Assembly: GCA_002104895.1 (NCBI GenBank)
Contig: MCFG01000220.1
Coordinates: forward strand, 62,001 to 114,120
DNA: 52,120 bases
Direction: 5' to 3'
DNA from: Anaeromyces robustus
Taxonomy: Eukaryota
Under the pieces are notes generated by a model. The model was not told the origin of the DNA and ran no database searches. It was given only the letters and a program-made list of their open reading frames with translations. Positions 45,224 through 45,838 of the stretch are shown here, piece by piece. Every line of letters starts with the position of its first letter. The first letter of the stretch is position 1. The position numbers were made by a program, and so were the translations under genes.

Positions 45224-45838
45224 ATTTGAATACTCCATGCTGTAATGATGGATGGAATAACGAAAGGTGGGCGGTTCATTTGATGGCCCGAGCCCAAGTC
45301 CTTTCGGATCTCCTTGATGACACGCTTTTGGGCGTTGATTAGGGGGAAAGGCAGATGGTTTTTGTAGAAGCCGTTGAAATAATCGCCCCCCCCCAAATAT
45401 TTAGAATATATTTGTAAGGAAAAAAAATAGATTATAATGAAAAAATATTTATTTAATACTATAATATAAAATTTTATTGAAAAAAAATAAAATATATAAA
45501 TAGAAAATAGAAAATAATACAAACAAACTGCTAGAAAGACAGATTTTACGAATTTTCCAATTTTCCTCAAATTGACTAAAATGTAAAGTATTTTTGTACA
45601 AATAATAAATATATTAAAATTTTTTTTTTAATATTTTTTTTTTCCAAATGATATTATACATTTGAGAATAATCTTTATATATAGTATAAATTTAAATATA
45701 ATTCAAACTAATAAATAAATATATAATAATAAATAAAAACTTATTTAATAATTATAGCTCTATTGTTATTAAAGGCTTAAATGGAAATAGATTATCAGAA
45801 GCTTATTTTTTTTTTTTTTTCTTTGATCAACATCAATG
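45075..45838 (+). pseudogene. Decayed secreted LRR-type gene (signal peptide, Cys cap and phase-2 exon remnants)
   Basis: MKISTLNLFLFNIFSIISIAYGVNSQ signal-like start followed by an early stop and a poly-A run; DLNTPCCNDG cap-like remnant; exon remnant TDFTNFPIFLKLTK at|gtaaag (ends 45582) joins ag|c SIVIKGLNGNRLSEAYF..FDQ (from 45758) in phase 2, like the intact LRR genes. Confidence 0.55.
45271..45387 (-). other. recG: 117-bp fragment of bacterial ATP-dependent DNA helicase RecG (Bacteroidota-like)
   Basis: Translates GDYFNGFYKNHLPFPLINAQKRVIKEIRKDLGSGHQMNR, matching the RecG segment LPFxLTxAQxRVxxEIxxD..MNR that precedes LLQGDVGSGKT; 59/117 bases are G/C, with GC-ending codons unlike host genes. 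Confidence 0.85.

Follow-up and report, generated by a model that had tools for sequence, protein, structure and literature searches.

The window analyzed here comprises 52,120 nucleotides of an Anaeromyces robustus contig (MCFG01000220.1, positions 62,001 to 114,120) and has a GC content of only 14.6%, with a median of 0.12 and a 99.9th percentile of 0.50 for stretches of 100 nt. On this scale a GC island at 45206–45424 peaks at 0.54, the maximum of the whole window. It holds a short antisense insert that lies in non-coding AT-rich DNA between a 241-codon ORF and the gene of an alpha/beta-hydrolase. The insert is internal to a contig of 114 kb and fungal sequence extends for tens of kb on either side. 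The adjoining gene encodes an Abhydrolase_3 alpha/beta-hydrolase of 316 amino acids with relatives in Piromyces sp. E2, P. finnis and Neocallimastix lanati (47–48% identity), and the host thus belongs to the anaerobic gut fungi (Neocallimastigomycota), which live in the same habitat as the donor clade described below. Three paralogous intron-less Abhydrolase_3 hydrolases are found in the window (16310–17272, 20105–21067 and 46514–47470), the first two being near-identical tandem copies. Polyubiquitin is encoded at 50684–52120 by at least six ubiquitin units arranged head to tail, and this gene runs off the window end. In an ORF at 4741–6201 with 33% GC, ricin-B lectin domains are fused to a putative esterase; genes of this kind have often been described as acquired from bacteria in these fungi. 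An AAT/ATT trinucleotide microsatellite of about 400 nt with several open frames (poly-Ile or poly-Asn) occupies 9157–9666. The second-highest GC island (42357–43002, up to 0.49) contains a C6 run and only short minus-strand ORFs; neither Rfam families nor tRNAs were found in it or elsewhere in the window, and it is probably a small-exon gene. The features at the insert itself are as follows.

45075–45167, plus strand: short ORF resembling a signal peptide, as judged from its translation only (MKISTLNLFLFNIFSIISIAYGVNSQLFIK, then a stop)
45175–45220, plus strand: A46 homopolymer that ends 50 nt before the insert begins, possibly a fragile site
45221–45270, plus strand: left flank of 50 nt with 40% GC (top 2% of all 50-nt windows), encoding DLNTPCCNDGWNNERW
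45270/45271: left junction, where bacterial homology ends after ...ATGAACCGC
45271–45387, minus strand: recG-derived core of 39 codons, GDYFNGFYKNHLPFPLINAQKRVIKEIRKDLGSGHQMNR
45338, minus strand: private base, C to T on the sense strand, by which the conserved Thr of LTNAQ becomes Ile; all 122 homologs have C here
45386–45394, plus strand: C9 run (G9 on the recG sense strand), the right junction
45395–45419, plus strand: AT-rich right flank (12% GC over 45395–45444) with a gtaag that had been read as a splice donor

The minus-strand frame is free of stops from 45399 on and reads YLGGGDYFNGFYKNHLPFPLINAQKRVIKEIRKDLGSGHQMNR, followed by the unrelated PPFVIPS... The core has a GC content of 50.4% and a GC3 of 71.8%, and the homology extends from 45271 (or 45270) to 45387 and probably on into the C run, giving an insert of 117–124 nt. 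The original prediction, made from the letters of the window, had described a stop-free minus-strand stretch of 117 bp with about 50% GC, the C9 run, the peptide CCNDG of a cap remnant and an apparent end of exon 1 (gaatatatttgtaag); all of them are present, the latter two being encoded on the plus strand at 45238–45252 and located at 45404–45418, respectively. Its embedding of the fragment in a dead LRR gene was not supported: when 15 exon peptides of the LRR paralogs were compared with 44200–46513 using tblastn, only low-complexity matches were obtained, of which the best (E 2e-5) was wholly poly-Phe and was matched by a control region with 3e-5. The LRR and Cys-rich paralogs are located at 32–41 kb of the window, and the short ORF at 45075–45167 is all that suggests the beginning of a gene near the insert. 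As an observation on these paralogs, the multi-exon LRR gene cluster (32000–41272, and 22149–23192 on the minus strand) has last exons that carry linkers rich in Thr and a repeated Cys-rich module, CxxGxCCSKYGWCG, similar to hevein-type chitin-binding domains; a Pfam search with the exon at 34229–34645 gave no match.

The translated fragment is a piece of the ATP-dependent DNA helicase RecG, with a match far beyond chance. A translation of 41 residues was searched against 5.8 billion proteins, restricted to longer proteins, and 3199 of 3217 candidates showed an E-value of 0.01 or better. The best matches (E 3.8e-17 to 1e-15, with the range also quoted up to 1e-12) are 92–95% identical, carry the domains RecG_wedge, DEAD, Helicase_C and RecG_dom3_C and, where the source gives a name, are ‘ATP-dependent DNA helicase RecG’ from MAGs of Bacteroidales, Bacteroidota or Flavobacteriaceae. 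Pairwise alignments over exactly 45387–45271 gave 37/39, 37/39 and 36/39 identities, with 37/39 (95%) being reached by two RecG proteins of uncultured Bacteroidales, P0004 and P0006. Nine NCBIfam RecG equivalog models match as well (E 1.6e-7 to 3e-3), over 30–36 residues only and with 16–30 bits, far under the whole-protein cut-offs of 555–995 bits. The fragment corresponds to residues 256–294 of the 701-aa protein P0006, whose DEAD domain spans residues 272–435 in the Pfam layout; it thus covers the beginning of helicase domain 1 and ends just short of Walker A, and the bacterial homologs go on with LLQGDVGSGK exactly where the window departs from them. This agrees with the segment upstream of Walker A that had been proposed.

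Nothing else of the gene is present. A tblastn search with four full-length RecG proteins found only 45271–45387 in the window, and the wedge domain, Walker A and B, the helicase C domain and a start codon are all missing. Compared with the complete SF2 ATP-dependent DNA helicase the insert is 95% identical over residues 256–294 of 701, but it represents only about 6% of the protein and, without the remaining parts of RecG, is non-functional under every reading discussed below. One alignment that extended the homology upstream to 45492 was rejected as spurious low-complexity noise, as its 35 additional positions held 5 identities and a gap of 8 residues and left the score unchanged.

In its composition the fragment is indistinguishable from its bacterial relatives: GC is 50.4% in the insert, 50.3% as the mean of the bacterial homologs and 25.2% in the adjacent fungal hydrolase gene, and GC3 is 71.8%, 68.8% and 10.4%, respectively. 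Against the three nearest relatives we counted eight synonymous and two non-synonymous codon differences and no excess of GC to AT changes; with this ratio and the lack of a GC to AT bias the divergence has accumulated under selection in bacteria. Only one of the 117 bases is private to the insert in comparison with 122 unique homolog sequences, namely base 45338; it may have mutated after insertion, represent a rare variant of the donor or be erroneous. Established bacterial-origin genes of anaerobic gut fungi average 31% GC in the data given in 10.1101/487215. Judged from these figures the fragment is essentially un-ameliorated and the event, if real, very recent, so that the ‘barely ameliorated’ of the original prediction was, if anything, an understatement.

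A rumen member of the Bacteroidota had been suggested as donor. When one genome per prokaryote species was considered, the relatives of P0006 were overwhelmingly ruminant and gut Bacteroidales MAGs, including RUG and RGIG genomes, red deer and horse MAGs, ‘bacterium P3’ and Candidatus Limimorpha, the latter being classified as Bacteroidales incertae sedis. The search against bacterial genomes and rumen MAGs gave matches in 65 of 80 genome loci (best nucleotide identity 90.1% over 121 nt, in a goat MAG), in 141 of the 272 genomes of the P0006-relative family (best 90%) and at 77 loci of metagenome contigs that were recovered by a degenerate scan with a 22-residue core (best 90.7% over 118 nt). 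The identity to Bacteroidales MAG loci is thus 90–91% over 118–122 nt, and none of these three sets of sequences contained a closer donor. On these similarities the donor clade is the group of rumen and gut Bacteroidales around Ca. Limimorpha, ‘bacterium P3’ and the RUG and RGIG genomes, and because the best DNA identity is only 90–91% the donor species is an unsampled one. This is unremarkable, since 22% of the 122 unique homolog segments are equally isolated, with a nearest neighbour no closer than 90.6%.

Both limits of the homology are sharp and both ends are internal to a bacterial ORF of 2.1 kb. At the left junction the alignments start variously at 45270, 45271 or 45272, many of them at 45270, which agrees with those homologs that continue with CTG; the microhomology is therefore at most 1 nt (0–1 nt). 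The right junction is hidden within the C9 run. Here the homologs read GTGGTGGGC where the sense strand of the window reads nine G and then C, so that 45386–45387 are certainly bacterial and 45388–45393 agree at four of six bases. BLAST alignments reach 45388–45391, and the RecG homology probably runs on to 45391–45393 inside the C run, while the remainder of the run may be untemplated or otherwise derived. The two or three differences from the homologs are every one to G, and the G run could be a donor variant, an untemplated addition during repair or the result of poor base calls. Only three G/C runs of at least six bases exist in the window, namely this C9 run, G8 at 3778–3785 and C6 at 42939–42944. 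The G8 run, for which we estimate a chance expectation of about 1e-4 in the window, follows directly on an A14 tract (3764–3785 in total) in AT-rich surroundings with no foreign-looking sequence next to it; G/C runs therefore arise independently in this genome.

The flanks are less easily assigned. For the 50-nt left flank no paralog was found in the window, the 272 family genomes gave only chance matches of 15–20 nt, none of 401 sampled Bacteroidota genomes contained it, no match was obtained in plasmids and phages, and a degenerate scan of metagenome contigs with its peptide returned 0 hits. It may derive from a former fungal exon or from a second capture. Notional excision of 45271–45394 leaves 11 open codons after ...NERW, and as we estimate the chance of such a read-through at roughly 0.3 in DNA of this AT content, it gives no evidence of once-contiguous flanks. 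As to the A46 tract, it is one of five A/T homopolymers of at least 30 nt in the window (starting at 6836, 36328, 37383, 41603 and 45175), all of which are A on the plus strand and none T; the genes near them are mostly on the plus strand.

Taking the sequence evidence together, we consider the chances about even that bacterial DNA was genuinely and recently captured here by end joining. A short piece of extracellular DNA from a bacterium, present in rumen contents or in the rumen fluid of the culture medium, would have been taken as filler during NHEJ repair of a chromosomal double-strand break, which the nearby A46 tract perhaps promoted, with 0–1 nt of microhomology at one junction and a partly templated, partly added G/C homopolymer at the other. 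Clarified rumen fluid is used in culture media. The fragment has the properties of such a filler in that it is foreign, short (117–124 nt) and truncated at both ends. NHEJ capture of foreign or extrachromosomal DNA at breaks is known from NUMT and NUPT formation and from captures at Cas9 cuts (PMC6368560, PMC2567098); among the Cas9 breaks described in PMC6368560 are some that captured E. coli, bovine or goat DNA from plasmid preparations and serum, with 0–4 bp of microhomology (6 bp in one case) and truncation at both ends. An uptake of added nucleic acid, in that case siRNA, is described for germinating spores of an anaerobic gut fungus (PMC5796279). The insert shares with these captures its shortness, the truncated ends, the lack of function, the 0–1 nt of microhomology where the junction can be read and a donor whose DNA is present in the surroundings of the cell. 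It differs in that DNA would have passed from a free-living gut bacterium to a gut fungus, in nature or in culture, whereas NUMT and Cas9 cases involve an organelle or a transfection experiment, and in the 9-nt G/C homopolymer at one junction.

It is also possible, if somewhat doubtful in our judgement, that the insert is absent from the fungus and that contaminant bacterial DNA entered the consensus, either through a chimeric molecule, through short-read correction and polishing or through gap filling, with the rumen-fluid medium or a co-processed rumen sample as its source. A contaminant would look exactly like this wholly un-ameliorated piece of zero evolutionary age, 117–124 nt is the length of a short sequencing read, and the end that degenerates into a homopolymer with all differences to the same base could reflect poor base calls. 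Moreover, the flanks are not demonstrably contiguous, considering that neither an empty site nor a paralog was found and that 11 open codons are all that follow after excision. An artefact would however need two artificial junctions, as the insert lies inside a long contig and is bordered by AT-rich fungal DNA at either end. The homopolymer loses weight as a sign of an artefact with the G8 run standing elsewhere in the window without foreign DNA, and no adapter or template-switch-oligo motifs were found. Long-read consensus methods also drop insertions that are carried by single reads, which counts against an artefact. Contaminant chimeras in eukaryotic assemblies resemble the present case in being un-ameliorated bacterial sequence in a eukaryotic record, but they are usually whole contigs or contig ends, whereas the insert is a patch of 120 bp with host sequence on both sides.

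An independent copy of either junction was found neither in metagenome contigs nor in the protein collection, as might be expected from an artefact: all 77 metagenome recG loci lie on ordinary bacterial contigs with 41–57% GC, and among the collected proteins of 33–105 aa none has words in common with the translation across the junction. Raw data were compared by words sampled from 44700–46000. One sequencing run of DNA, which may be the assembly's own source, holds 0.92 of the 132 sampled words, about 12% of which touch the insert. This share mildly favours an at least partial presence of the insert, but it equally fits a run in which only the junction words are missing, as contaminant reads would supply the internal ones. 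Three RNA runs hold small shares of 0.08–0.15, and these shares are taken as evidence for neither reading.

A very unlikely variant of a true insertion is the capture by a reverse transcriptase, in which a broken fungal 3' end would have primed the copying of a fragment of bacterial recG RNA. The first cDNA strand would then be the plus strand, and the C run would be a tail that was added without template once the 5' end of the RNA was reached. Reverse transcriptases add C tails, and the order on the plus strand, from the fungal 3' end through antisense recG to the C run, fits this idea, as does 1 nt of microhomology on the priming side. Break repair mediated by reverse-transcription products is among the processes described in PMC6368560. 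Bacterial mRNA is however less likely to occur in a fungal nucleus than bacterial DNA, the C run is partly templated by bacterial sequence, and a tail of at least 6 nt is long. Strongly disfavoured, and hardly credible to us, is the last remnant of an older and larger transfer of recG or of a bacterial segment that has since decayed, which despite the many old bacterial genes in anaerobic gut fungi (10.1101/487215) we rejected on composition (GC3 of 72% against 10% for the fungal gene, where the established transferred genes in that work average 31% GC), in addition to the single private base, a homology that stops abruptly with no score gained by extension, and the lack of a further RecG piece in the window.

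A capture by end joining would also be distinct from the gene transfers known in this phylum. According to the figures given in 10.1101/487215, genes of bacterial origin make up 2.1–3.6% of the genes in anaerobic gut fungi and derive mostly from gut bacteria including Bacteroidetes, which is the same pairing of donor and recipient as seen here. The known cases are complete and expressed genes, in many instances with introns and duplicated, with about 31% GC and shared within a genus, whereas the insert is an antisense scrap of 39 codons with 50% GC and without function, having no complete ORF and a GC3 of 72% against 10% in the host gene.

In summary we give the same even chance to the insert being real, in which case it would be a fresh, un-ameliorated scrap of about 120 bp from the chromosome of a rumen Bacteroidales member, sealed with a G/C homopolymer. 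If it is an artefact, it is a warning that read-sized patches of contaminant DNA can hide in the long contigs of very AT-rich genomes and could seed false HGT calls. If it is true, it would add an example from nature to a process already known, in which breaks capture foreign DNA. The transfers so far described in anaerobic gut fungi are all old, selected and ameliorated, and a true insert would give a snapshot of the first, pre-selection step in gene transfer from bacterium to fungus, with bacterial DNA integrating at random and without selection. It would then point to a steady rain of such scraps, which as zero-age markers could be counted per genome or strain and would measure the influx behind the HGT load of the phylum.
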